NCBI RefSeq assembly: GCF_003334335.1
Contig: NZ_QOWQ01000061.1
Strand: one strand, 5' to 3'
Origin: Escherichia coli
GTDB taxonomy: Bacteria; Pseudomonadota; Gammaproteobacteria; Enterobacterales; Enterobacteriaceae
Length of the DNA: 13,768 bases
In this document: positions 72 through 13,768 of the stretch, piece after piece
Layout: each line of letters opens with the position of its first letter
Numbering within the stretch: position 1 is the first letter of the stretch
Notes under the pieces: generated by a model
Told to the model about the DNA's origin: nothing
Seen by the model: only the letters and a program-made list of their open reading frames with translations
Databases searched by the model: none
Translations under genes and position numbers: made by a program

Positions 72-431
72 TTGCTGGGTAAGATCAGTGCCTGGCACAC
101 GCGTTTGATGGAAGACGGCGTTCAGGCAATGCGCGATTATCTTGCCGGACTGGATATCGCTTCGCCAGAGCATCAGGTTCTGATGAACGTAACAGCAAAA
201 AGCGAGGTCGCTCCGTCAATTATCAAAGAAAATCTCTCATTACACTTAACTCATACGGTGAAATGGACTGAATCTCTCGATACATTTCTGAATATGCCAA
301 CCCCGGTAGCTTTCCTTGAAATAAGTAATAAGCCCTATTTGGGGAATATGTTAAATGATTTTGCTGGCGTGGATCAGCAACGAGTTATGCATTGTCGTAA
401 AGCATTTAGTGATGCAAAGGTATTCAAATGA
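72..431 (+). CDS. Malonyl-CoA:ACP transacylase (FabD)-like acyltransferase, C-terminal fragment only (possible truncated gene or pseudogene)
   Basis: Translation aligns by eye to the C-terminal third of E. coli FabD ([11 protein letters not shown]...HTVKWTESL vs FabD SAPFHCALMKP...PVQWTKSVEY). The frame has TGA stops at 24-26 and 39-41, so no full-length acyltransferase can be encoded here. ORF-track start is TTG at 72; first in-frame ATG is at 108; no clear SD for either. Stop overlaps the next start (ATGA at 428-431). Confidence 0.4.
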
Positions 432-1414
432 TTCCTGATTATTTAACTTTTATTCGCTTTCAGGATAAACGAAATCTGATATACATTTATGCTATTGGAC
501 TTATTCTGATAGGCTTTTATTGGAAGAATGCAGGGTTTACTTTTCCATCAGAGGATATTGGTGTAGTTAGTGGGATTCTGGCTCTGGTGCTGTATAATTT
601 TATTTTTGATCTCAAGGCGTACTGGGCTTATAAATGCGTCACGAAGAATATCGATTTTTCGTGGTTTAAGAAAAAGCAGAACCACAAAATAGAATTATTT
701 CTTACACAACCTCTGGTGGCAGGATTTCTGTCGTTAATCATGTTGAGTGCAATGAGTTGGGGGCTATACCAGCTTCTACCCTCGTTATATGCGCTGTTCC
801 TGATTTCGTTACTTGGGCCGTTGGTCATCTTTCTGCTGTTTCGGATGATCCGCACCAGTTATGTCAAGCAGGTCGCTATTTCAGTAGCGAAAAAAGTAAA
901 ATATAAAAGTCTGACTCGCTATGTGCTGCTTTCGGTGTGCATCTCAACGGTTGTTAACCTGCTTACTATCAGCCCGTTGCGTAACAGTGATTCTTTTGTG
1001 ACAGAGGGGCAGTGGTTAACGTTTAAATCGATAATTGCATTGCTCATTCTTTGTGGCGTAGTGTTGGCGATTAATCTGTTTTTTCTGCGCTTCTCCAAGC
1101 GGTACGCTTTTCTGGGCAGGCTTTTTTTGCAGGAAATCGATCTGTTTTTCTCCAGTGAAAATGCGTTGTCGACCTTTTTTGCCAAGCCGCTTTGGCTTCG
1201 GTTATTCATATTGCTGGTTATTGAAGTGATGTGGATTACGCTGGTGTCGGTATTGGCAACGCTTGTAGAATGGCGGATTTGGTTTGAAGCCTATTTTTTA
1301 CTCTGCTATGTACCGTGCTTAATTTACTATTTTTTCTATTGTCGATTCCTCTGGCATAACGATTTTATGATGGCATGTGACATGTATTTCCGTTGGGGGC
1401 ATTTTAATAAGTGA
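428..1414 (+). CDS. Polytopic integral membrane protein, function unknown
   Basis: 328-aa ORF with multiple long hydrophobic segments typical of transmembrane helices (e.g. [91 protein letters not shown]). Translationally coupled to the upstream ORF. Visibly AT-rich. No family recognised. Confidence 0.6.
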
Positions 1415-1573
1415 GGAAGTGATAGGAAGTGACCAGATAATACATATATGTTCTGTACTCTCTTGCGCATTTTGATTGTTGACTGAGTAACCAGACAGTT
1501 GATGTGCACGATTTCCCCTCGCCCTAACAGACGTGGGCGGGGGCACCCGGTGTGTGCAATATACGAAAAAAAA

Positions 1574-1601
1574 GCCCGTACTTTCGTACGAGCTCTTCTT
1601 T
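1574..1601. terminator. Hairpin flanked by an A8 run on one side and a T-rich run on the other; possible bidirectional intrinsic terminator
   Basis: Stem GCCCGTAC (1574-1581) / GTACGAGC (1586-1593) with one mismatch, loop TTTC, preceded by AAAAAAAA (1566-1573) and followed by TCTTCTTT. Read on the minus strand it is a hairpin followed by U8, the stronger terminator orientation. Confidence 0.4.
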
Positions 1602-1636
1602 AAATATGGCGGTGAGGGGGACCGCCTGAAATAAAT

Positions 1637-1664
1637 CTGACTTAATCCAGGGGTGTTATATAAT
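1637..1664 (+). promoter_or_regulatory. Candidate sigma70-like promoter upstream of the integrase gene
   Basis: -35-like CTGACT (1637-1642), 16-bp spacer, perfect -10 TATAAT (1659-1664), about 115 bp upstream of the int start. Sequence match only, no expression evidence. Confidence 0.25.
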
Positions 1665-1780
1665 TTCATTATAAACAATGTATTACACTTTTTGTTGTCC
1701 GATATTATCTAATGTATTCTTAGTGAAGCGAGAGACTAATGGCATACTGGATGGCATACCAGAGTGACGGGAATTAGCGT

Positions 1781-2983
1781 ATGGCAGTATTGACGGATAC
1801 GAAAGCAAGACATATCAAACCTGATGACAAACCATTGCCCCATGGGGGAATTACCGGACTGACCCTTCATCCTTCTTCAGTAAAGGGGCGGGGGAAATGG
1901 GTTTTTCGTTATGTAAGTCCGGTGACACAAAAAAGACGTAATGCTGGATTGGGAACTTACCCAGAGGTCAGTATTGCTGAAGCTGCACGTACTGCCCGGA
2001 TAATGCGAGAGCAACTTGCTGCAGGTGATGATCCTCTGGAGATTAAAAAGGCTGAATCTGAGAAAGTCGCTATCCCAACATTTGCCGATGCAGCCAGGCG
2101 TGTACATGCAGAACTGTCTCCTGGATGGGAAAATCCAAAGCATGTAAGGCAGTGGTTATCGACGCTTGAGAATTACGCGTTTCCTCAACTGGGAGCAAAA
2201 ACGCTGGATTCGATTACGGCTGCGGACGTGGCAGAAACACTGCGTCCAGTCTGGTTAACCTTGTCAGAAACGGCAAGCCGGGTTAAACAGCGCATTCATG
2301 TTGTTATGCAGTGGGGATGGGCGCACGGTTTTTGTGTAGCAAATCCTGTTGATGTGGTTGACCATTTGCTTCCTCAGCAGACAAGAGGACGTGATGAACA
2401 CCAACCCGCAATGCCCTGGAGGCAGTTACCGCTTTTTGTGGCGACCAGTGTGTATACCGATGAACCTTATAATGTTACCCGCGCACTGTTATTAATGGTG
2501 ATACTTACAGCAACTCGCTCGGGCGAAGCCAGGGGAATGCGCTGGGCTGAAATTGATTTTCATAAGCGGGTATGGACTATACCTGCAGAAAGAATGAAAG
2601 CTAGGCTACAGCATCGTGTTCCTTTATCCCGGCAGGCTATTTACATTCTGGAAAATATACGTGGCCTGCATGATGAACTGGTGTTCCCTTCACCCAGAAA
2701 GCAGCAGATCCTTTCCGATATGGTGTTGACAAGTTTTCTGCGTAAAAAGAAAGCCGTCAGTGACATTCCGGGGCGAGTTGCCACGGCACATGGTTTTCGC
2801 TCAACATTCAGGGACTGGTGTAGCGAACAGGGGTATTCGCGGGATCTGGCGGAAAGGGCGCTCGCTCATACGCTGAAAAATAAGGTTGAGGCGGCATATC
2901 ATCGTACTGATCTACTGGAGCAGCGTGTACCGATGATGCAGGCATGGGCGGATTATGTGATGTCTCAAATTGTGAATAAATAA
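1781..2983 (+). CDS. int: Tyrosine recombinase, P4-family (CP4-57 IntA-like) integrase
   Basis: 400-aa ORF. N-terminus has the typical P4-type integrase arm-binding region (LTDTKARHIKPDDKP...GKWVFRY...). C-terminus carries the catalytic signature (TRSGEARGMRWAEID, HGFRSTFRDW, catalytic Tyr in AAYHRTD). Family assignment from motif recognition, not a search. Confidence 0.93.
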   Translation: MAVLTDTKARHIKPDDKPLPHGGITGLTLHPSSVKGRGKWVFRYVSPVTQKRRNAGLGTYPEVSIAEAARTARIMREQLAAGDDPLEIKKAESEKVAIPTFADAARRVHAELSPGWENPKHVRQWLSTLENYAFPQLGAKTLDSITAADVAETLRPVWLTLSETASRVKQRIHVVMQWGWAHGFCVANPVDVVDHLLPQQTRGRDEHQPAMPWRQLPLFVATSVYTDEPYNVTRALLLMVILTATRSGEARGMRWAEIDFHKRVWTIPAERMKARLQHRVPLSRQAIYILENIRGLHDELVFPSPRKQQILSDMVLTSFLRKKKAVSDIPGRVATAHGFRSTFRDWCSEQGYSRDLAERALAHTLKNKVEAAYHRTDLLEQRVPMMQAWADYVMSQIVNK

Positions 2984-3114
2984 TAGTGAAAATGTATATT
3001 GTACGATCATGATTTGATATGTGATCGTAGCAGTAGTAATTAAGAAACCGCTTTTATGTCAAATGTATTGAGCTGATAATTATCAGATCGTCAGGAAAGC
3101 GTATTTTGATTAAC

Positions 3115-3142
3115 AGGGGATTACTTAACAATCCCCTTTTTA
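3115..3142 (+). terminator. Rho-independent terminator-like hairpin in the int / 605-aa gene convergent intergenic region
   Basis: Stem AGGGGATT (3115-3122) / AATCCCCT (3130-3137), 7-nt loop, followed by TTTTT (3137-3141). Lies between the convergent int (+) and 605-aa (-) genes. Confidence 0.5.
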
Positions 3143-3169
3143 TAAAAAATAATTTGCCTGTTTAACTCT

Positions 3170-4987
3170 TCACTCCTGCTGAGACTGAATTATTCCTAGT
3201 GCGTCATAAATCAGTCTTCTGCGTAGTTTATTGTTTTTATCTGCACCATATAACATAAATATATTTTCAACTTTTTCTTCAGGTGTTCTGAGATAATGGA
3301 TAAGAAAGGTTATCATTCCAACACAATGGAATAAAGTGAATCCATCAAACAGGCTTATCAGGTTTCCTTTTTTTTCCCGTGTTGTAAGTATTTTTTCGCG
3401 GGTAAGAATATTTGCCAGTTCATGGGGGGCTGATATGTTTCTGCTGTCTATAATGTCATTTATTTTACCAAGGGCTATATCAACTTCCTGTAATAGGTTA
3501 TTTATCATAGCTGAGTGAATGTTATTGGTTTCATGTTCCTGACAGTTTATGAACTTATAAATCATTGAGTTATACAGAAATATTACTCTTCCTAATAAAT
3601 ATGTGTTTGTGTCATTTTGAAGACAGGACTCTGGGTATTCGTGATCCAGTGAAATAAGGTTAATGGACTCGCCCTGATAAGTCATAAAATAATTGATGTC
3701 ATTTAATAATGCTCGGATATTTACATGATTTTTACTGAATTTTATTTTAAATGCTATCTTTAGTATAGCAAACGCGGCAATGATAAATCCAAAAGGTAAT
3801 TTCTCATAGTTCAGTTTATTGATGGTGCGATGAACACTTTCAGTCTTTCCTGAAGTAAGTTGTCTCAAACAGTTAACAAATTCTGTATAGCCATTTAAGA
3901 CATAATGGCATGAAGAATCTTTTAAAGAGTTTTCTATGTTTTGTAATGTGACGCCGTTGTTCAATGTATAAATGTAACCGCCAAAGACAATGTTTTCAAT
4001 CTCAACGACACAATTTATTGTTTTTTGTTCAGGATAAAGATAAATATCAGAAATACTATAGTCTCGTATTGCGTCAATGGCATCCCACGATAATGCACTG
4101 TCAATTTTCAGTGTATAAAATGGTGAGTTCTCATTAGGAAAGTAATATATGTATTTGTTCAGTATATTCATTACATCTATTGGGTTGGTTAAATATAATA
4201 ACTGGCATTCATATTCTGAAACTTCTCTTTCGCTTATCAGCATTTTATATAAAGTTGCCAGGGTGCTTGTTAATGAAGTTCGTCTTTCGAAAGCCAGTAA
4301 TATAGTGAGATAATAACATGCAACCTGAACTTTATCTAAGTCAGAAATTATTTTTTCCTTGTCTTCATTACTTAAATAAAGCAGATGTTTACAGGTTTCT
4401 TTGCATGTGTTGATAGTTGCGATAAGTTTTGTTTTTCCTGGTGTACTGTTTTTGCGAATATTACGAATGAATTCATATACGCCATCAAAGATATCTTTGA
4501 AATGCGCATTCGCTGGCGTGTATCCGGATAAACATAACTTAACGTAATTTCGCAGATATGTCCTTGCAGCATGATATATATCATCCTCATTATCCGGTAT
4601 CTGAGTGAGAAAAGAATGAATATGATAGTAAAATGCCATCTCATTATCCGGGCGATATGTGTTCCTGATGTCGAGTGCGAGAATCATTGGTACAATGTCA
4701 TTAAAATATTTTTGTTTTATTATTTGATGTGTTTTGTCTGTAAAAACAGAATAGTGCATTAGCTTAACATAGAGATCTTCATATCTCCTAAATATAACTT
4801 TTCGTTGTTCTTTACTCAATACTTGTTCTTTATCAATAATGTTTATTAATTCATCAAACATGTCGCCCAGTGAATGTTGATGTGAGGAAAAATTTTTAAT
4901 ATTTCGGATGTCACGGCTATTCTGGTTTTTAGCCAGAACACCAAAACATGAAAAGACATCATACATTATAGTGATAAAATTATACAT
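3170..4987 (-). CDS. Hypothetical protein, 605 aa, no recognisable family; AT-rich orphan cargo gene
   Basis: Long uninterrupted minus-strand ORF. Strong SD (AAGGAGA) 5 nt upstream of the ATG at 4987 (minus-strand sense). Codon usage markedly more AT-rich than int or the 1083-aa gene (by eye). One predicted hydrophobic helix (KLPFGFIIAAFAILKIAFKI). I recognise no catalytic motif. Confidence 0.8.
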   Translation of the reverse strand: MYNFITIMYDVFSCFGVLAKNQNSRDIRNIKNFSSHQHSLGDMFDELINIIDKEQVLSKEQRKVIFRRYEDLYVKLMHYSVFTDKTHQIIKQKYFNDIVPMILALDIRNTYRPDNEMAFYYHIHSFLTQIPDNEDDIYHAARTYLRNYVKLCLSGYTPANAHFKDIFDGVYEFIRNIRKNSTPGKTKLIATINTCKETCKHLLYLSNEDKEKIISDLDKVQVACYYLTILLAFERRTSLTSTLATLYKMLISEREVSEYECQLLYLTNPIDVMNILNKYIYYFPNENSPFYTLKIDSALSWDAIDAIRDYSISDIYLYPEQKTINCVVEIENIVFGGYIYTLNNGVTLQNIENSLKDSSCHYVLNGYTEFVNCLRQLTSGKTESVHRTINKLNYEKLPFGFIIAAFAILKIAFKIKFSKNHVNIRALLNDINYFMTYQGESINLISLDHEYPESCLQNDTNTYLLGRVIFLYNSMIYKFINCQEHETNNIHSAMINNLLQEVDIALGKINDIIDSRNISAPHELANILTREKILTTREKKGNLISLFDGFTLFHCVGMITFLIHYLRTPEEKVENIFMLYGADKNNKLRRRLIYDALGIIQSQQE

Positions 4988-5127
4988 AACATTCTCCTTT
5001 TATTGCACTATATAAAATTTTAACATTATATCATTTTGCTTTTCTGTTAACTGGTTTTCATTTTTGAATCAATATTTTCTGAACAGGGTAATAGTACACG
5101 TATTAACAGATTATGTCAGAAGGCCCC

Positions 5128-5890
5128 GGTGATGCCTTCTGACGATAGATTAATGTTGTATTCTATTGGTATCTGGAGACCATATGGCAACAGTTACAGT
5201 ATATTCTCCCCGCTGTAATTCCTATAAAGTGTACCGTTATGATCACAGCACCTCAGATCATGAGCGTTTCCAGTGCTAATCCTGCAAACGTGTATTTCAA
5301 CTGAATTACATCTACGAAACCCGAAAACCAGGCATTAAAGAGCAAATTGTTGAAATGGTTCATAACGGAGCCGGGGTTCGCGATAGCTCCAGAACGCTGA
5401 AGGTGGATATCAACACCGTCATTCTCACTTTAAAAAACGCTCACCACGTAAAGTAACCATATCTCCAGCCGCCAGTGTCGATGTGGCACTTATCTGTGAA
5501 CTTGATGAACAATGGAGTTTTGTCGAAAACAAAGCTCGTCAGCAGTGGCACTGGTACGCGTATAAGACCAAAGCTGACGGTGTGCTGGCTTACACTTTTG
5601 GTCCTCGCACTGATGAAACATGCCGTGAGTTGCCGGAATTCCTGAAGCCATTCTCCGCAGGCATGATAACCAGAGACAACCGGAGCAGTTATACCAGAGA
5701 AATGCCACAGGATAAGCATCTTGTCGGCAAGATATTTACCCGGCGCATTGAGCGCAACAATCTGACACTTCGTACTCACATCAAACGACCTGCCCGGAAA
5801 ACGATTTGCTTTTTACGCTCCCTGGAAATTCACGAAAAGCCATTGGTTCATTTATCGAAAACACATGTACTACTGACAGGAGTCATTACC
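5128..5890 (+). mobile_element. IS1-family insertion sequence, about 763 bp, probably inactive
   Basis: Left end GGTGATGCC... at 5128 and right end ...GGAGTCATTACC at 5879-5890 match IS1 terminal inverted repeats. Internal insA/insB-like ORFs with the conserved A6C frameshift motif (5432-5438). Element length matches IS1 (768 bp). No clean 9-bp target-site duplication seen. Confidence 0.8.
5184..5456 (+). pseudogene. insA: IS1-family insA with an in-frame premature stop
   Basis: Translation MATVTVYSPRCNSYKVYRYDHSTSDHERFQC*SCKRVFQLNYIYETRKPGIKEQIVEMVHNGAGVRDSSRTLKVDINTVILTLKNAHHVK aligns to IS1 InsA, but an in-frame TAA at 5277-5279 falls inside the zinc-finger region. Confidence 0.75.
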
Positions 5891-5920
5891 AGGGCCTCTT
5901 TTGCTGTTTTTTTGCCATGA
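5483..5920 (+). CDS. insB: IS1-family InsB-like transposase segment; reading frame runs past the right inverted repeat
   Basis: Translation (ICELDEQWSFVENKARQQWHWYAYK...TRRIERNNLTLRTHIKRPARK...) aligns to IS1 InsB ([26 protein letters not shown]...[21 protein letters not shown]). Frame is -1 relative to insA, as in IS1. The ORF continues 30 nt beyond the IS end at 5890, so the native stop appears lost. Confidence 0.7.
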   Translation: MALICELDEQWSFVENKARQQWHWYAYKTKADGVLAYTFGPRTDETCRELPEFLKPFSAGMITRDNRSSYTREMPQDKHLVGKIFTRRIERNNLTLRTHIKRPARKTICFLRSLEIHEKPLVHLSKTHVLLTGVITRASFAVFLP

Positions 5921-6086
5921 ATGATAATGAGAATCGACAGCGATAAGGGAAAAGTAAAATAACACTAATGCTGTTGTTTTCTATCATATTGATTTTTAAT
6001 TATTTATTGTCTTTTTTCTCAACCCATTTTTTTACGCAGACAAATTTACCCGGGGAATACAAACTGTAACGACAGTTCACCACACT

Positions 6087-6395
6087 ATGGGGGATAAAAT
6101 GCCAGATCAATCCGGACACTGCAGGACTCCTTCACGCATCTTACGGATGCCTGAACTGAGCCAATTGTTAGGTATATCTCGTTCGACAATTTACGAAAAA
6201 ATGAATCCGTTATCGAAATACTACGATGCAACCTTCCCCAGGCCGGTACGTCTTGGTAGTGGTTCTGTGGGCTGGCGTTCATCAGCTATTGACGAATGGC
6301 TTACTTTACATACTGTACCTGCCAGATCAGCAGTCAAAGGTGTTAATGACGAAGTGAGACATACGCTTTCTTCAGATATGACCATGAGCAGATAA
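6087..6395 (+). CDS. alpA: AlpA-family (prophage CP4-57 regulatory protein-like) DNA-binding regulator / excisionase-like protein
   Basis: Motifs ILRMPELSQLLGISRSTIYEKMNP and YDATFPRPVRLGSGSVGWRSSAIDEWL match the AlpA helix-turn-helix family. The likely true start is the ATG at 6099, preceded by GGGGGA. Confidence 0.85.
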   Translation: MGDKMPDQSGHCRTPSRILRMPELSQLLGISRSTIYEKMNPLSKYYDATFPRPVRLGSGSVGWRSSAIDEWLTLHTVPARSAVKGVNDEVRHTLSSDMTMSR

Positions 6396-6477
6396 GTTTT
6401 TGTCATCACGTGATCACCTCAGGAGGAAAAAGAAGCATAAGAACAATTTAGCCAGAAGTTTAATTGATAAACAGAAT

Positions 6478-6830
6478 TTCCAGCATTCATTGTTGAAAGA
6501 GCAGCTATTGTCGCTATTGTAGCGGTAATTGCTGCTATAACCGAAACGTATTACGAAAAAGGAAGCATTTATGCCTTACATCAAACCGGATATGCCGTAT
6601 TCAGTATATGCATGACCATCAATGATAGGGAAGGCAATAATTAAAGCTCAATACAATAAACAAGTACCTCTGACTCTGGTTGCAATGTCAGTATTAACAG
6701 CGATGTCAATTGCCTGTCAGAATCAGGTTGACGTATGCAGTCCCGGAAATTTACGTGGGGCCGTTAATATTTACACTATGGTTCTGGAGAAAGGGAAAAG
6801 ACCGGGGGAAAGGTATTAGTGAAATAATTT
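6478..6830 (+). repeat. Direct repeat copy 1: diverged duplicate of the promoter-proximal and 5' coding region of the yfjI-like gene
   Basis: Aligns by eye over about 330 bp with 6958-7310, including the shared motif AGCAGCTATTGTCGCTATTGTAGCGG and the coding stretch CAATTGCCTGTCAGAATCAG(G/A)TTGACGTATGCAG. I estimate roughly 75-80% identity (not computed). Confidence 0.7.
6571..6819 (+). pseudogene. Degenerate duplicated 5' fragment of the yfjI-like gene
   Basis: ATG at 6571 gives MPYIKPDMPYSVYA* and then, after a 1-nt indel relative to copy 2, a second frame (6622-6819) encodes ...QVPLTLVAMSVLTAMSIACQNQVDVCSPGNLRGAVNIYT, paralogous to QAPLAMVATSALTAISIACQNQIDVCRPGNLHGPVNLYS of the intact gene. 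Confidence 0.55.
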
Positions 6831-6957
6831 CTGGAGGTATTAAGAATGAGAAATATGAATGATATTTCGTGGTGAATAATACAGTCTTCACTGAATTAAC
6901 CTTATCGGTTTATTAAACATCAGATCTACAAATGCTCTGTATTTCTCAGAGCATCAG

Positions 6958-7310
6958 GTCTGAATAGCAGCTATTTTCGCTATTGTAGCGGGATTTGCTG
7001 CTATTTTACTAACCCATTAATGAAAAGAGAGGCTTTTATGTGCTTACTTGCACCAGAAAATCCTTATCCGATATATGCACTACCACCGCTGGTGAGAAAT
7101 GCAATAATTGAAACTCAAAAAAATACACAGGCACCTTTGGCTATGGTGGCAACATCCGCATTAACAGCGATCTCAATTGCCTGTCAGAATCAGATTGACG
7201 TATGCAGACCTGGAAATTTACATGGGCCTGTTAATCTTTACTCTCTGATTCTGGCTGATTCCGGTGAAAGGAAAACGACCGTGGATAAAGTGTTTATGAA
7301 AGCATTTTAT
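6958..7310 (+). repeat. Direct repeat copy 2: the intact promoter-proximal and 5' region of the yfjI-like gene
   Basis: Partner of copy 1 at 6478-6830; this copy is continuous with the long ORF starting at 7020/7038. Confidence 0.7.
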
Positions 7311-8177
7311 CTCAGGGATGAAGCCCTGGCGGAAGAATACGCGAAACTGGTTGAGAATTACAGTACAGAAAAGGAAATATGGGAGCAAAAACAAAAAGCG
7401 CTGGAATCAAAATTTCATAAAGAGATTCGTGCCGGTAAAGATTACAAGGCAACAGAATCAGAGCTTGAAACGCATCTGAATAAACCTCCTGTTCCGCCGC
7501 AGATACGTCGAACAATTTTTAATGAGACAACGATAGAGGGAATGTTAAAATATTACTCCGATAGCAATCGCTCTTTTGCTCTTGTATCCAGTGAAGGGGG
7601 GGTAATTTTTGACAGCCGGGCCATGAGTAAACTGGGAATTATTAACACTTTGTGGGATGGAGGTTCTCTTTTCATCGACAGGAAATCATCTCCCGGAATT
7701 AATTTGAAGGAGCCAAGACTGACGATATCGGTGATGATTCAGCCTGATGTTTACCACAAAGGTTTTTGTACGCGAAAAAAAGAAATTGTGAAAACGTCAG
7801 GACATCATGCAAGGTTTTTGATGTGTCAACCAACATCAACGCAGGGGACAAGGATAATAACCGGAGATAATTATTCATCACAGTATCAGGATTTGTTTGA
7901 AGAGAGGATCAATGAGCTTATTGATGAAAGTCTGGCGATGAGTGGTGAACGACGTTGCCTTCACTTTTCTCCTCAGGCTGCCAGAATCTGGACGGATTAT
8001 TACAATGATGTGGAATCGAAGCTGGGGGGATTGGGGCCTTTAAGACATTGCCGGGAATATGCTGCTAAAAATGCAGAGTATATGGCAAGACTGGCAGGAC
8101 TTATTTACCATTCGAGCGGGGGAGATTTCCCCTTACACTGCAGAAATGGCGAGAGAATTAGCAATATGGTACGGTAA
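7020..8177 (+). CDS. yfjI-like (DUF3987-type, putative replication-associated) protein, N-terminal 385 aa; frame interrupted near the 3' end
   Basis: Long ORF in the position occupied by yfjI after alpA in CP4-57-type islands. SD-like AAGAGAGG precedes the internal ATG at 7038, the more likely start. The reading frame continues in another frame (8059-8463) after a G5 tract. DUF3987 assignment is from genomic context and memory, not a search. Confidence 0.7.
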   Translation: MKREAFMCLLAPENPYPIYALPPLVRNAIIETQKNTQAPLAMVATSALTAISIACQNQIDVCRPGNLHGPVNLYSLILADSGERKTTVDKVFMKAFYLRDEALAEEYAKLVENYSTEKEIWEQKQKALESKFHKEIRAGKDYKATESELETHLNKPPVPPQIRRTIFNETTIEGMLKYYSDSNRSFALVSSEGGVIFDSRAMSKLGIINTLWDGGSLFIDRKSSPGINLKEPRLTISVMIQPDVYHKGFCTRKKEIVKTSGHHARFLMCQPTSTQGTRIITGDNYSSQYQDLFEERINELIDESLAMSGERRCLHFSPQAARIWTDYYNDVESKLGGLGPLRHCREYAAKNAEYMARLAGLIYHSSGGDFPLHCRNGERISNMVR

Positions 8178-8463
8178 TGAGTATGTGCGGTTGTCTAATC
8201 CGTTAACTTTTGACAACTCTGCCCTGACCGTACCTGTGCGACTCATTCCAGAGGAGCTTGAACTTTTCAACTGGATAAAAAGCTATTGTATTGAGAAGGG
8301 GATCCTCTGTATGAAAAAAAATGACATTTTACAGCGTGGTCCGAACCGTTTCCGGAAAAAGGATAAAATCAACTGGTTACTGGATTTACTGTATGAACAA
8401 AACAGAGTTGTACCGGTTATTGAGGGAAAAACGTTGTGTGTCGCACCTAACTTTGACCTCTGA
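8059..8463 (+). CDS. C-terminal segment of the yfjI-like protein in a shifted frame
   Basis: Overlaps the previous ORF by 119 nt in a different frame; no independent RBS. Combined length (about 480 aa) is what I expect for a yfjI-family protein. Confidence 0.55.
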   Translation: MLLKMQSIWQDWQDLFTIRAGEISPYTAEMARELAIWYGNEYVRLSNPLTFDNSALTVPVRLIPEELELFNWIKSYCIEKGILCMKKNDILQRGPNRFRKKDKINWLLDLLYEQNRVVPVIEGKTLCVAPNFDL

Positions 8464-8486
8464 ACGACTTAATCGTTGAGTTCATA

Positions 8487-8517
8487 TAGTCTCCTCTGCT
8501 ACTTGCGGAGGAGACTA
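8487..8517 (+). terminator. Perfect 10-bp stem-loop immediately downstream of the yfjI-like gene; possible terminator or protein-binding hairpin
   Basis: TAGTCTCCTC (8487-8496) pairs with GAGGAGACTA (8508-8517), 11-nt loop. Downstream sequence is only moderately T-rich, so it is not a canonical intrinsic terminator. Confidence 0.35.
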
Positions 8518-8518
8518 A

Positions 8519-9283
8519 TGTCTTTACCATGTCAGCGTTGTATTAGAAAACTCTGGTACAGGTCAGTCAGTAAATATAACTGGTGTAACCACTATTTACT
8601 ATTGGATAGAGTGTTGCTCAGGATATTGTCGGCTTTAGTCTGAGGTGAGGTGGGGCCTTCATTGTTTTCGTGTTCAATAAATAATTTAGGTTAATTAGTA
8701 TTATTAGTGGAAGTTATGTGATCTGTTATGTTGTCTTGTACGCACTTAACACTGGTTACGTACCGGAACACTATTAGAGTATGTTATGGCTCTGTTACAG
8801 TTTATAGGTATGAAAAAATATAATCTTTCCTGTATGAAATAATATTCTTATGGTGTGTGGGGTATGGTCTGTATACCATCATTTTTATGGTGAAGTTAAA
8901 TATCTGTAGAGGCCTTAAGCTGGGTCGCTGTTTTTACTTAATGGTACAGAAGTATTAATAGCGGTGTTGCCTGTGGCTACCCGATACTGGCTTTTGTGAA
9001 TGTCAGATTACTTCCTGTAAGTGATTGAATGGTACTTCCTTAAACTCAATTCTATGAGGTGTGTTTTTACCATTGTAATTCGTACTGGTCCTCAGTTTAA
9101 GTGAGTCTTACTGTACTCTGAAATATTACCTCTTTGGAGTAATGAGGTAATACGAAACAGTTTTATCAGGTTGTCTGTGCTGCTGGTTACCTCGTTTATT
9201 AATGCCGCGGTACGGCGTTTCTGTACTCTCAGTATTTATGTAATTCCACCTTCCTGTAACTTTTATAAAGTAAGGACTATAAA
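8519..9283. other. ORF-free AT-rich region with short repeated motifs and hairpins; candidate replication origin / regulatory region
   Basis: No ORF of 60 aa or more in any frame across about 820 bp. Repeated TTCCTGTA (8826, 9012, 9250), CTGTACTCT (9111, 9221), TGTTATG (8715, 8725, 8782). Inverted repeat TATTACCTC/GAGGTAATA (9124-9151). Sits directly upstream of the HUH Rep-like gene. Confidence 0.3.
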
Positions 9284-9847
9284 ATGTATAATGCTAATCC
9301 CAATTACGAAATGGACTTCATGATTCTGAAAGACGTGAATGAACACATGGAAGGTCTGTTTCAACGTTTTTCTAAACTGTTACCTTTCAGAATTGATTTT
9401 GCCTACAGGAAAGACACGCCCAGTTTTGGTCATTCCTGTAGGCACAGTATGTGTATTGAAATGCACCGCTTACTTAGTGAAACCCAAACGATGCTGGCGG
9501 GATATTACTGGGTAATGGAATATACGTCAAACAAGGGACTTCATATTCATTTTATCGGCTACTTGGATGGGCAACGTCACAAGAAATTTTATCGGATATC
9601 CAGGCAACTGGGAGATATCTGGAGTCGGATCACGGAAGGGGAGGGTTATTTTCACCTGTGCAGTACTAAAGACAAATACCCGGTGCGTATCGATCACGTG
9701 ATTCACTATAGTGATAAGTCTGCGGTAGACGGTTTACGTTACGCCCTTAGCTACCTGGCTAAACAGGAGCAGAAAGAACACGGTATTATTCTGATGCGTA
9801 GCAGACTTCCCGAAAAAAGTAACCGCGGCCGACCACGACACAACTGA
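9284..9847 (+). CDS. YagK/YfjJ (inovirus Gp2)-family protein with HUH-type motifs; putative rolling-circle Rep-like initiator
   Basis: 187-aa ORF with an HUH-like motif LHIHFIGY and a downstream tyrosine motif YALSYLAK (YxxK-like). Occupies the position of yfjJ in CP4-57-like islands. Shorter than I would expect for this family. Confidence 0.65.
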   Translation: MYNANPNYEMDFMILKDVNEHMEGLFQRFSKLLPFRIDFAYRKDTPSFGHSCRHSMCIEMHRLLSETQTMLAGYYWVMEYTSNKGLHIHFIGYLDGQRHKKFYRISRQLGDIWSRITEGEGYFHLCSTKDKYPVRIDHVIHYSDKSAVDGLRYALSYLAKQEQKEHGIILMRSRLPEKSNRGRPRHN

Positions 9848-10355
9848 ATTACAGCTGTATTAGAATTAAGTTTCCGTAAGTTGTTGGGAGGTGCTTGAGT
9901 TAATAGGCAGTAGAGGGGGCGCTGTAATCAGTGTAGGGGACCCGAATTTCTGCTGTGGTGCTTCAGTGGTTCGGATACAGGTAACGAATATGGTTCATAA
10001 ATCTGACAGTGATGAATTAGCAGCACTGAGGGAAGACATCACTTGAAGCTTATGGGATTGAATGGCGACGTAAACCGCAGAGTCCTGTGCAGTGCGTTTC
10101 CGTATTATCCACGGATGAGAAAGTTGCGTTATTTCGTCGGTTTTTTCGTGGGCGTGGTGATGTATGGGGCCTTCGATGGGAAAGCAAAACCAGCGGCAAA
10201 TCAGGGTACTTGCGGGCCTGTGCTAACGAATGGCAGCCGGGAATAGCGGTAAACTCCGGATAAAATGTGGGGACTGCGCTCACCGTCAGTTGATCCCTGT
10301 ATCTGATCTCATCATCTACCACTACACGGTTTAACGGGGCCGCGTCATCTCGGCG

Positions 10356-10385
10356 TTGCCCGATAAATTCTTTTCTACGTATAAT
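10356..10385 (+). promoter_or_regulatory. Candidate sigma70-like promoter for the 1083-aa gene
   Basis: -35-like TTGCCC (10356-10361), 18-bp spacer, perfect -10 TATAAT (10380-10385), about 110 bp upstream of the start codon. Sequence match only. Confidence 0.3.
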
Positions 10386-10497
10386 AACCAGAATGAACGT
10401 GTAAAACACCATAGTATTCAGAACTATAAACATCGAAACTTGCCATATTGACCAGAATAAATGACCTTATTTTTACTGAAATTTAAGGAGAACACCG

Positions 10498-13768
<3,271 letters not shown>

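Follow-up and report, generated by a model that had tools for sequence, protein, structure and literature searches.

The stretch of DNA analyzed here, hereafter the window, comprises 13,768 nucleotides of Escherichia coli. On the evidence of its sequence, positions 1621-13692 very probably represent the integrase-proximal (left) arm of an island of the SpLE1/O-island 43-48/SRL-PAI family, an integrative element of the CP4-57 type that sits at the 3' end of the tRNA-Ser gene serX. The genes are arranged in the order P4-type integrase, a reverse-strand gene for a 605-residue protein (p605), an IS1 remnant, an AlpA/Rox-like regulator, YfjI (a DUF3987 helicase), a spacer of 820 bp devoid of ORFs, and a YfjJ-like putative HUH protein. 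The serX islands are long-known genomic islands of E. coli and Shigella (SpLE1, O-island 48, the SRL island) that have been described since 2001, and the present element is not new: the integrase, the 14-bp att core, the excision frequency and the Rox factor of the family have been published, and the Mokosh cargo found here belongs to an already catalogued defence system. As the family, its parts and its cargo are known, the principal identification raises no new question. Being a decayed island with a broken Mokosh system, this copy is also ordinary, bar one conserved partner gene, that of p605.

The left boundary is marked by a 14-nt direct repeat, TGGCGGTGAGGGGG (1607..1620). This attL core corresponds, as its reverse complement, to the final 14 nt of serX. 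The window is 100% identical to K-12 over positions 1-1620 and diverges directly after this core, with the island starting at 1621. The same repeat occurs at the annotated left end of SpLE1 and is the published direct repeat of OI-43/48 and the SRL-PAI (PMC3064760). The right end of the island lies outside the window, and a second copy of the repeat was located only in the complete relative A7, inside the intact serX at the far island end. Within the island, two copies of TGGCATAC, 12 nt apart (1740..1759, plus strand) and the only ones in the window, are candidate arm-type Int-binding sites; a matching, equally spaced pair is present in the A7 island, 57-76 nt inward from its right end. Scans of the window for tRNAs and Rfam families gave no match at gathering thresholds. 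The RtT annotation seen in relatives is part of a 181-nt repeat unit, and this unit is absent from the window.

The intact integrase gene (1781..2983, plus strand) encodes a P4-family tyrosine integrase of 400 residues with the Pfam domains Arm-DNA-bind_3, Phage_int_M and Phage_integrase, and it falls in PHROG 1 (integrase). It lies in a stretch with 99.6% nucleotide identity to Sakai SpLE1 (including ECs_1299), and its product shows 96% identity to the Int of L016, a locus of the SRL-PAI-like kind. The AlpA/Rox-family regulator, a putative recombination directionality factor (RDF), is likewise intact (6087..6395, plus strand; Pfam Phage_AlpA, 7.3e-19) and adjoins the DUF3987 (YfjI-like) gene; it shows 52% identity to K-12 AlpA and 80% to the protein in the Rox position of L016, and Rox itself has been cited as an RDF (PMC3014918). 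In EDL933, Sakai and clinical strains, OI-43/48 has been shown to undergo Int-dependent excision that restores serX, with complete excision at 1.8e-3 and 2e-4 per cell for near-identical islands (PMC3064760). By extension from these close relatives, in which both activities have been shown, the integrase of the window would recombine the 14-bp core, with the AlpA/Rox-like protein probably serving as the excision factor. The initial annotation had proposed that the element may be immobilized; this is plausible only with regard to the replication genes, since no damage is seen in int, attL or the Rox-like gene, and excision of near-identical islands occurs at 1e-3 to 1e-4 per cell.

Comparisons with sequenced islands place the element more precisely. 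Its counterpart in E. coli O157 Sakai is annotated as "phage-like element SpLE1", carries ECs_1299-1305 in matching order, and is identical to the window at 99.6% of nucleotides over 88-7858 and at 96.3% over 7907-10322. SpLE1 corresponds to O-islands 43/48 of EDL933, the tellurite-resistance/adherence island, and shares with the window the serX site (serW in some strains), the 14-bp repeat and ECs_1299-1304 in order. The IS1 remnant and the scar formed by a partial yfjI copy are also present in Sakai SpLE1. The two differ in that only a frameshifted stub of 333 nt remains here of iee (ECs_1305), Mokosh I having taken its place, and in that yfjI of the window is 48 bp longer than that of Sakai, yet has its own 8-bp frameshifting deletion. 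In A7, the remainder of the island holds enterotoxin, sugar-utilization and fec genes in place of the ure, ter and iha genes of SpLE1. Complete relatives have islands of 71-86 kb (71 kb in A7), and in another genome the backbone is found at serW, beside clpA. The region is not part of a conserved core chromosome, which would have counted against the initial annotation: it is accessory, K-12 has an empty site, and among 5426 complete genomes the entire window is present in 260 and the 6000-9900 backbone in 1211.

The resemblance to CP4-57 of K-12, recognized in the initial annotation, holds at the level of gene order and of family-level homology (Int 34%, AlpA 52%, YfjI 41% identity). CP4-57 reads intA, yfjH, alpA, yfjI, yfjJ, abpBA and rnlAB onwards, and five backbone positions agree with the window in order and orientation. 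In both elements a defence system directly follows yfjJ, namely Hachiman/AbpAB in CP4-57 and Mokosh in the window. The distal module of the A7 island (GTPase, Ag43, DUF932, antirestriction, RadC/JAB and YeeU/CbtA), which adjoins the intact serX, is also of CP4-57 type in its YfjP/YeeP GTPase, DUF932, antirestriction, RadC and CbtA/YeeU genes. The elements differ in their attachment: CP4-57 is inserted at ssrA with its integrase beside the intact RNA gene (ssrA, then intA), whereas the serX island has its integrase distal to the intact tRNA, the opposite arrangement, with which the published OI-48 maps agree. Furthermore, the relation of CP4-57 YfjJ to the 187-residue protein of the window is barely detectable, and YfjH is unrelated to p605.

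The gene list published for the SRL PAI comprises int, a YfjI-like gene, rox, an orf4 without similarity, and the Gp2-family genes orf5 and orf6 (PMC6980539). It matches two loci, L015 and L016, whose assignment to the SRL type is based on gene order and not on comparing them directly with the SRL PAI itself. The SRL PAI and the window have the serX core repeat in common. In L016 the protein in the orf5 position is 90% identical to the 187-residue HUH-like protein, and in the SRL type a p605-family gene (orf4 position, 30% identity) is divergent from rox, as in the window. Two features of the SRL type also occur in the A7 island, namely the fec operon and the genes for aspartate racemase/DcuA. 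In the SRL type, however, the block of four genes has the opposite orientation with respect to int, so that int is followed by yfjI and rox on the opposite strand and then by orf4, unlike the window, in which int is followed by p605 on the opposite strand and then by alpA and yfjI. The two YfjI proteins are only 26% identical.

Downstream of alpA lie the genes that might act after excision. The yfjI-like gene for a DUF3987 helicase (7038..8463, plus strand) is a pseudogene in the source strain because of an 8-bp frameshifting deletion after 8117, by which it is split into ORFs at 7020-8177 and 8059-8463. The lost octamer is GGTGAAGA, and this is the sole indel over 12 kb relative to A7, whose intact orthologue of 477 residues has a DUF3987 match (3.5e-84) and aligns along its whole length with K-12 YfjI at 41% identity. 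A DUF3987 protein has been demonstrated to be a 5'-3' helicase paired with a PrimPol (PMC11724360). Preceding yfjI is a diverged duplicate of its 5' end (6497..6830, plus strand), 74% identical to 6963-7307, a recombination scar that is annotated in relatives as a small DUF3987 fragment.

The initial annotation had described an ORF-free repeat region followed by a YfjJ-family HUH-like gene. Both the ORF-poor spacer (8464..9283) and the gene (9284..9847, plus strand) are present, but the repeats are not. Tandem Repeats Finder detected no tandem repeats in the spacer, and a further repeat search yielded only two-copy families of 10-14 nt and one terminator-like hairpin (8487-8517); with no significant repeats in either search, an iteron or tandem-repeat reading is rejected. 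An E-value-based Rfam scan of the spacer returned only sub-threshold noise. The spacer also has a hypervariable core (approximately 8824-8944) and 300 conserved nucleotides immediately upstream of the YfjJ-like gene. This gene is intact and encodes a YagK/YfjJ-like putative HUH (Rep-like) protein of 187 residues, in which the H87-x-H89 and Y157-x-x-K160 motifs are invariant in an alignment with K-12 YfjJ and Pfam-positive YagK_YfjJ_C proteins. Its profile statistics are weak (Pfam REP_ORF2-G2P, 0.0012; YagK_YfjJ_C, 0.28; hhalign E-value, 0.0038) and its AF2 model has low confidence (pLDDT 61). Foldseek searches with the model gave no match below 0.01, the weak matches including the origin-binding domain of AAV Rep. 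The HUH assignment, made from these motifs, is accordingly a putative one, and YfjI and the YfjJ-like protein are best viewed as putative post-excision replication or processing genes of the element.

These same genes allow a second, doubtful but possible, explanation, in which the island is an integrative mobilizable element (IME) moved by conjugation. Here the YfjJ-like HUH protein would nick an origin in the conserved upstream spacer as a relaxase or rolling-circle initiator, YfjI would unwind the DNA, and the distal antirestriction, DUF932 and RadC genes would form a leading region in the recipient. The conserved HUH and YxxK motifs are consistent with such a role, as is the conservation of the 300 nt upstream of the gene, which is as strong as that of the coding sequence. 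Distal modules of the CP4 type (Antirestrict, DUF932, RadC) flank the four-gene block in relatives, and IMEs with an int-alpA-rep organization that are mobilized by conjugative plasmids have already been described (PIMEs). However, the window yielded no traJ, trbJ or trbL and no known relaxase family, the HUH membership of the putative relaxase is statistically weak, no conspicuous nick site or inverted-repeat origin emerged, and yfjI is frameshifted in the source strain.

The gene for p605 merits separate consideration. Two variable cargo slots had been postulated in the initial annotation, one occupied by this gene and the other following the YfjJ-like gene. The second does vary; p605, in contrast, is constant in the lineage and syntenic with alpA in distant relatives. 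A word-indexed protein search with p605 recovered only homologs with at least 91% identity, and the wider family was found by exhaustive search. Its members, down to 24% identity, lie divergently beside alpA-DUF3987 in all nine contexts examined. Thus p605 is not free cargo: its gene is a conserved partner of the alpA-yfjI-yfjJ operon and is transcribed divergently from it.

It is improbable, though it merits weighing, that p605 is simply a cargo gene for stand-alone phage defence, placed in a first variable slot. Its GC content is low (32%, against 41-49% in neighbouring genes), it diverges fast, and the same position is filled by unrelated large genes in CP4-57 (YfjH) and in the thrW/nfeF islands; in the latter lineage, identity is 68% for the slot gene, compared with 98.6% for the flanking int. 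Against this, p605 remains constant with the backbone in all close relatives, its homologs of 24-35% identity keep their divergent place while the cargo opposite changes, a conserved noncoding motif precedes the gene, and p605 has no PADLOC match. As to structure, p605 belongs to an uncharacterized family and yields a confident globular, all-alpha model. The Sakai annotation as a membrane protein does not appear to be supported, its sole hydrophobic helices being two borderline ones that lie buried within this model. Remote homology of p605 to YfjH or to the 545-residue slot gene of the thrW island was rejected (hhalign probability <0.1%). A relative of 866 residues (P0051) has no Pfam domain, and a fused HTH was not confirmed in it. 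The family is small, has a confident structure, is linked through synteny with the alpA operon and shows expression in EHEC. It is a candidate, and a testable one, for the regulator still missing from the picture of these islands, and is the sole lead of this analysis.

The proposal that the element is a phage satellite, which formed the other half of the initial annotation, is largely refuted as a claim of membership. In this scheme a helper phage would induce alpA, and a PICI or P4-like element would excise, replicate via YfjI/YfjJ and be packaged in helper capsids, its cargo slots carrying anti-phage genes. The window does share with PICIs and P4-like satellites a tyrosine integrase, an AlpA regulator and then replication genes, an order resembling the left end of Gram-negative PICIs (PMC10085698), as well as hotspots of anti-phage cargo, here beside yfjJ. 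Unlike them, it lacks packaging or capsid-redirecting genes: the main ORFs have no capsid-morphogenesis, small-terminase, psu/delta/sid or P4-alpha match in PHROGs or Pfam, and of the P4-like genes only int and alpA are shared, the psu-delta-sid operon, epsilon and the alpha primase-helicase not being detected. PICIs are defined by five core components and a size of about 10-15 kb (PMC10085698). The window has an integrase and an alpA-type regulator, and its primase-replicase candidates are only the frameshifted DUF3987 helicase and a dead PrimPol stub, giving at most three of the five components, while the SatelliteFinder classes accept four or five. The complete relatives, at 71-86 kb, are also far above the capsid-limited PICI/P4 size of about 10 kb, and in a single-protein search close relatives of YfjI occurred in just 2 of 2.9 million IMG/VR contigs. 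That the element is a phage satellite is very unlikely.

Returning to the island as a member of the SpLE1 family, the position directly downstream of the YfjJ-like gene is its cargo exchange point. Among islands it is occupied variously by IEE (as in SpLE1), Mokosh I, PifA (PifA::IS100), Hachiman/AbpAB, Mokosh II (MkoC) and the candidate systems PDC-S47 and PDC-S15. Its recurrence as a defence-gene exchange point in CP4-type islands makes it a useful anchor for mining. In the window it begins with the frameshifted 5' remnant of iee, the gene for the IS-excision enhancer, a PrimPol-helicase (9990..10322, plus strand), whose homology to Sakai ECs_1305 ends at 10322, at about codon 117, leaving 333 nt. 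A type I Mokosh module has replaced all but this portion, and exchange at one and the same nucleotide was observed at 10320/10322. Alternatively, because DUF3987 helicases partner with PrimPols, IEE may be a backbone replicase rather than cargo, in which case Mokosh destroyed a backbone gene instead of swapping cargo.

Decay of the source strain's copy involves both backbone and cargo. That backbone genes looked damaged was noted at the outset, and it is borne out by the yfjI deletion, the duplicate yfjI 5' end, the iee remnant and the degenerate IS1-family remnant between p605 and alpA (5184..5876, plus strand). The latter is 72% identical to an IS1 copy, and PGAP classes its orthologue as an IS1 pseudogene that is frameshifted and has an internal stop; where relatives lack this remnant, p605 and alpA are separated by 59-205 nt. 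The further claim that the cargo stays intact proved wrong for mkoA (10498..13692, plus strand), the type I Mokosh gene encoding NERD and kinase-like domains followed by a helicase (PADLOC MkoA PDLC03921, 1218 bits), which is interrupted at 13692|13693: codon 1065 is followed by the final 76 nt of IS100, an element of the IS21 family (13693..13768). These 76 nt have 100% matches in 2939 genomes under istB or IS100 annotations, and the junction itself is absent from all complete genomes searched. The intact MkoA orthologue of A7 has 1652 residues (2206 bits) and is accompanied by MkoB (503 bits; both PADLOC); its helicase region spans residues ~1049-1620 and is almost wholly cut away in the window. 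A type I Mokosh system consists of full-length MkoA and a PLD-like MkoB, whereas the window has residues 1-1065 of MkoA and then IS100. The replication gene and the defence cargo are both broken, with the parts for integration and excision preserved; int, the AlpA/Rox-like regulator, p605 and the HUH-like gene are intact. In this lineage, then, Mokosh displaced IEE, which promotes IS excision, and IS100 then struck the Mokosh gene, upstream of which a promoter-like 10/12 match lies at 10356-10385.

From position 1 to 1620 the window is 100% identical to K-12 (a stretch with an IS3 terminus, the ymdE pseudogene, ycdU and the beginning of the ycdU-serX spacer), and K-12 lacks the sequence from 1621 on. 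Because of this absence, and because at least 80% of the window is carried by 260 of 5426 complete E. coli genomes, the region is accessory rather than a part of the conserved core chromosome. The flank is K-12-like, whereas the island is closest to that of strain A7, the best match to the window among the complete genomes (99.7%). Within 1-431, the IS3 end (1-87) adjoins ymdE (a fragment of an ACP S-malonyltransferase) in precisely the K-12 arrangement.

Of the att direct repeats that the initial annotation had proposed to locate, the left copy is in the window and the right one was seen in A7. The 14-mer TGGCGGTGAGGGGG at 1607-1620 directly precedes the break with K-12 and is the reverse complement of the 3'-terminal 14 nt of the tRNA-Ser gene serX; the A7 island, about 71 kb long, reaches at its far end an intact serX holding the same 14-mer. 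A tRNA scan found no tRNA gene inside the window. Just within both island ends lie identical pairs of TGGCATAC with 12-nt spacing (window 1740-1759; 42722-42741 in the compared locus L002), which, judged from sequence, are candidate arm-type integrase sites. K-12 has four copies of the 14-mer, each closing a 75-nt block of a 181-nt tandem repeat, the last inside serX. Such blocks occupy 1546-1620 in the window and 2962-3579 in the K-12 locus L004 (four blocks), and their number left of the island varies (one in the window, two in A7, two in O111). The K-12 repeats resemble tyrT/RtT repeats and bear the PGAP label RtT sRNA.

The element is already named and has an existing literature. In E. coli O157:H7 Sakai, the annotated phage-like element SpLE1 begins at the equivalent of 1607 and comprises an integrase (ECs_1299), a "membrane protein" (ECs_1300), a transposase pseudogene (ECs_1301), a regulatory protein (ECs_1302), ECs_1303, ECs_1304 and the IS-excision enhancer IEE (ECs_1305). 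Exactly this 14-bp repeat flanks O-islands 43 and 48 (Bielaszewska et al., PMC3064760), which share it and an integrase (99% nucleotide identity) with the Shigella SRL pathogenicity island, and for which complete excision is reported in 1.8e-3 and 2e-4 of cells (PMC3064760). The genes listed for the SRL PAI are int, a YfjI-like gene, rox, orf4 with "no similarity" and two Gp2-family ORFs (PMC6980539); two loci reached via a homolog of p605, the 605-aa reverse-strand gene product of the window, match this list (L015/L016; Int 96%, Rox-position protein 80% and orf5-position protein 90% identical to those of the window). Rox is cited as the recombination directionality factor of the SRL island (PMC3014918). 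In other strains the same backbone is inserted at serW, adjoining clpA. SpLE1 is 99.6% identical to the window over 88-7858 and 96.3% over 7907-10322. In Sakai and O157-like strains yfjI is 48 bp shorter, in frame (1386 versus 1434 bp in the window and A7), and the fall in identity lies downstream of this difference; the drop near 7858-7907 suggests a recombination boundary within yfjI.

The attribution to a CP4-57-type backbone holds. The initial annotation was mostly right; it erred on the satellite reading, on one of the two slots and on the intactness of the cargo. Gene order and orientation match K-12 CP4-57, which runs intA, yfjH (reverse strand), alpA, yfjI, yfjJ, then abpB/abpA and rnlAB; AbpA and AbpB score as Hachiman HamA and HamB in PADLOC. 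CP4-type distal genes also close the A7 island (GTPase, Ag43, DUF932, antirestriction, JAB/RadC, DUF987, YeeU/CbtA and DUF4942). Unlike in CP4-57, int here is at the far end of the island from the intact tRNA. The integrase (1781-2983; Arm-DNA-bind_3, Phage_int_M and Phage_integrase) is 34% identical to IntA, and the regulator (6087-6395; Phage_AlpA, 7e-19) 52% identical to AlpA. YfjI (7038-8463; DUF3987, 3.5e-84 in the intact A7 orthologue) shares 41% full-length identity with its K-12 counterpart; one DUF3987 protein was shown to act as a 5'-3' helicase that, together with a PrimPol partner, replicates a mobile element (PMC11724360). The 187-aa protein (9284-9847) can be aligned with K-12 YfjJ and with proteins that match YagK_YfjJ_C in Pfam, with W76, E79, H87-x-H89 and Y157-x-x-K160 invariant. 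Its family-profile scores are weak (Pfam 0.0012 and 0.28; hhalign E 0.0038), as are all fold matches of its AF2 model (pLDDT 61), AAV Rep among them; it is likely, though not proven, to be HUH Rep-like. The 5' end of yfjI is duplicated upstream (6497-6830 versus 6963-7307, 74% identical). Since this duplicate moves with the yfjI-HUH module into islands with unrelated int/alpA modules (L009, L011, L012), it marks a mosaic junction.

Membership among phage satellites is not supported. The PICI definition rests on five core components, namely integrase, regulator, primase-replicase, capsid-morphogenesis gene and small terminase (PMC10085698); the window has two, at most three, of these, packaging genes and P4 core genes were not found in it, complete relatives measure 71-86 kb, and only 2 IMG/VR contigs carry close YfjI relatives.

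The ORF-free stretch at 8464-9283 had been described as a repeat region, a description that fails: Tandem Repeats Finder returned nothing, a repeat search gave only short two-copy families, and no Rfam family matched. It holds a terminator-like hairpin (8487-8517) and a hypervariable core (around 8824-8944), and the approximately 300 nt preceding the HUH-like gene are conserved to the same degree as the coding sequence.

Downstream of the HUH-like gene, SpLE1 homology ends at 10322, within iee near codon 117; the stub (9990-10322) carries a frameshift and is followed by a promoter-like site (10356-10385) and mkoA. The intact A7 orthologues score as type I Mokosh in PADLOC (MkoA 2206 bits, MkoB 503 bits). 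Where the backbone recurs in other islands, in the same or a related form, this position is occupied by an intact IEE (L005, L006, L010 and Sakai, L008), PifA split by IS100 (L009), a group II intron with sugar transport genes (L011, L012), IS fragments (L007), a CHAT protein (L014), a Trypsin-AAA protein (L019), an FRG protein (PDC-S15) close to further conflict-system genes, PNP and SLATT (L020), DUF4062, Abi_alpha (PDC-S47) and Abi_C proteins (L021) or an MkoC-like protein (L022). Defence genes are indeed exchanged at this position, with two caveats: IEE might be a backbone replicase instead of cargo, and in L020 a GAP1/DO-GTPase/GASH cluster also lies on the side of p605, so that defence genes are not limited to this slot. 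In the window and in the SRL-PAI-like L016, the iee stubs stop at points of iee no more than 2 nt apart (window 10320-10322; L016 about 12056), with Mokosh next in the former and a YfjJ-like gene next in the latter; this suggests either a single truncation in an ancestor or a site of repeated exchange.

The cargo is not intact. Over 12 kb the window differs from A7 by 17 substitutions and one 8-bp deletion; the deletion frameshifts yfjI. Intact in this copy are int, attL, the regulator gene, p605 and the gene of the HUH-like protein. mkoA is cut off after codon 1065 by the end of IS100 (IS21 family), which makes up the final 76 nt of the window (13693-13768). This junction occurs in no complete E. 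coli genome, and the end inside IS100 is probably a contig end of the draft assembly.

Of the two variable cargo slots initially proposed, only the one downstream of the HUH-like gene survives. For the p605 gene, between int and the regulator, searches of Pfam, PADLOC, NCBIfam and PHROGs gave no match. A word-indexed search returned only homologs at least 91% identical, and an exhaustive phmmer search about 15 full-length relatives (24-35% identity). In all nine genomic contexts examined, the homolog is divergent from and adjoins AlpA-DUF3987, usually with YagK_YfjJ next, at 59-205 nt from the alpA gene. A noncoding motif upstream, roughly TGCCAT..CATCTGAGATACTGTCC.CGTA.AAAAATGGAAACCAAC.GGAG (intergenic regions of L013-L022), is kept among homologs with just 25-35% protein identity. 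Relative to int, the four-gene block is found in both orientations, and in the SpLE1 lineage p605 and the adjoining IS1 remnant are constant. We conclude that p605 belongs with the alpA operon as its conserved partner and is not swappable cargo. Its AF2 model is confident and all-alpha (pLDDT 83.8, pTM 0.84), and no structural relative specific to it was found; a regulator or sensor would be our preferred, if doubtful, guess. In other island lineages the position is taken by unrelated genes, which encode YfjH in CP4-57 and proteins of 537-545 aa elsewhere. Pieces resembling the upstream motif lie at about 5040-5190 and 5990-6030 of the window, with the IS1 remnant between them. In the nfeF/thrW lineage, the reverse-strand gene at this position is locally fast-evolving: it is 68% identical between L010 (6417-8030) and L012 (6443-8074), the integrases of these two islands being 98.6% identical.
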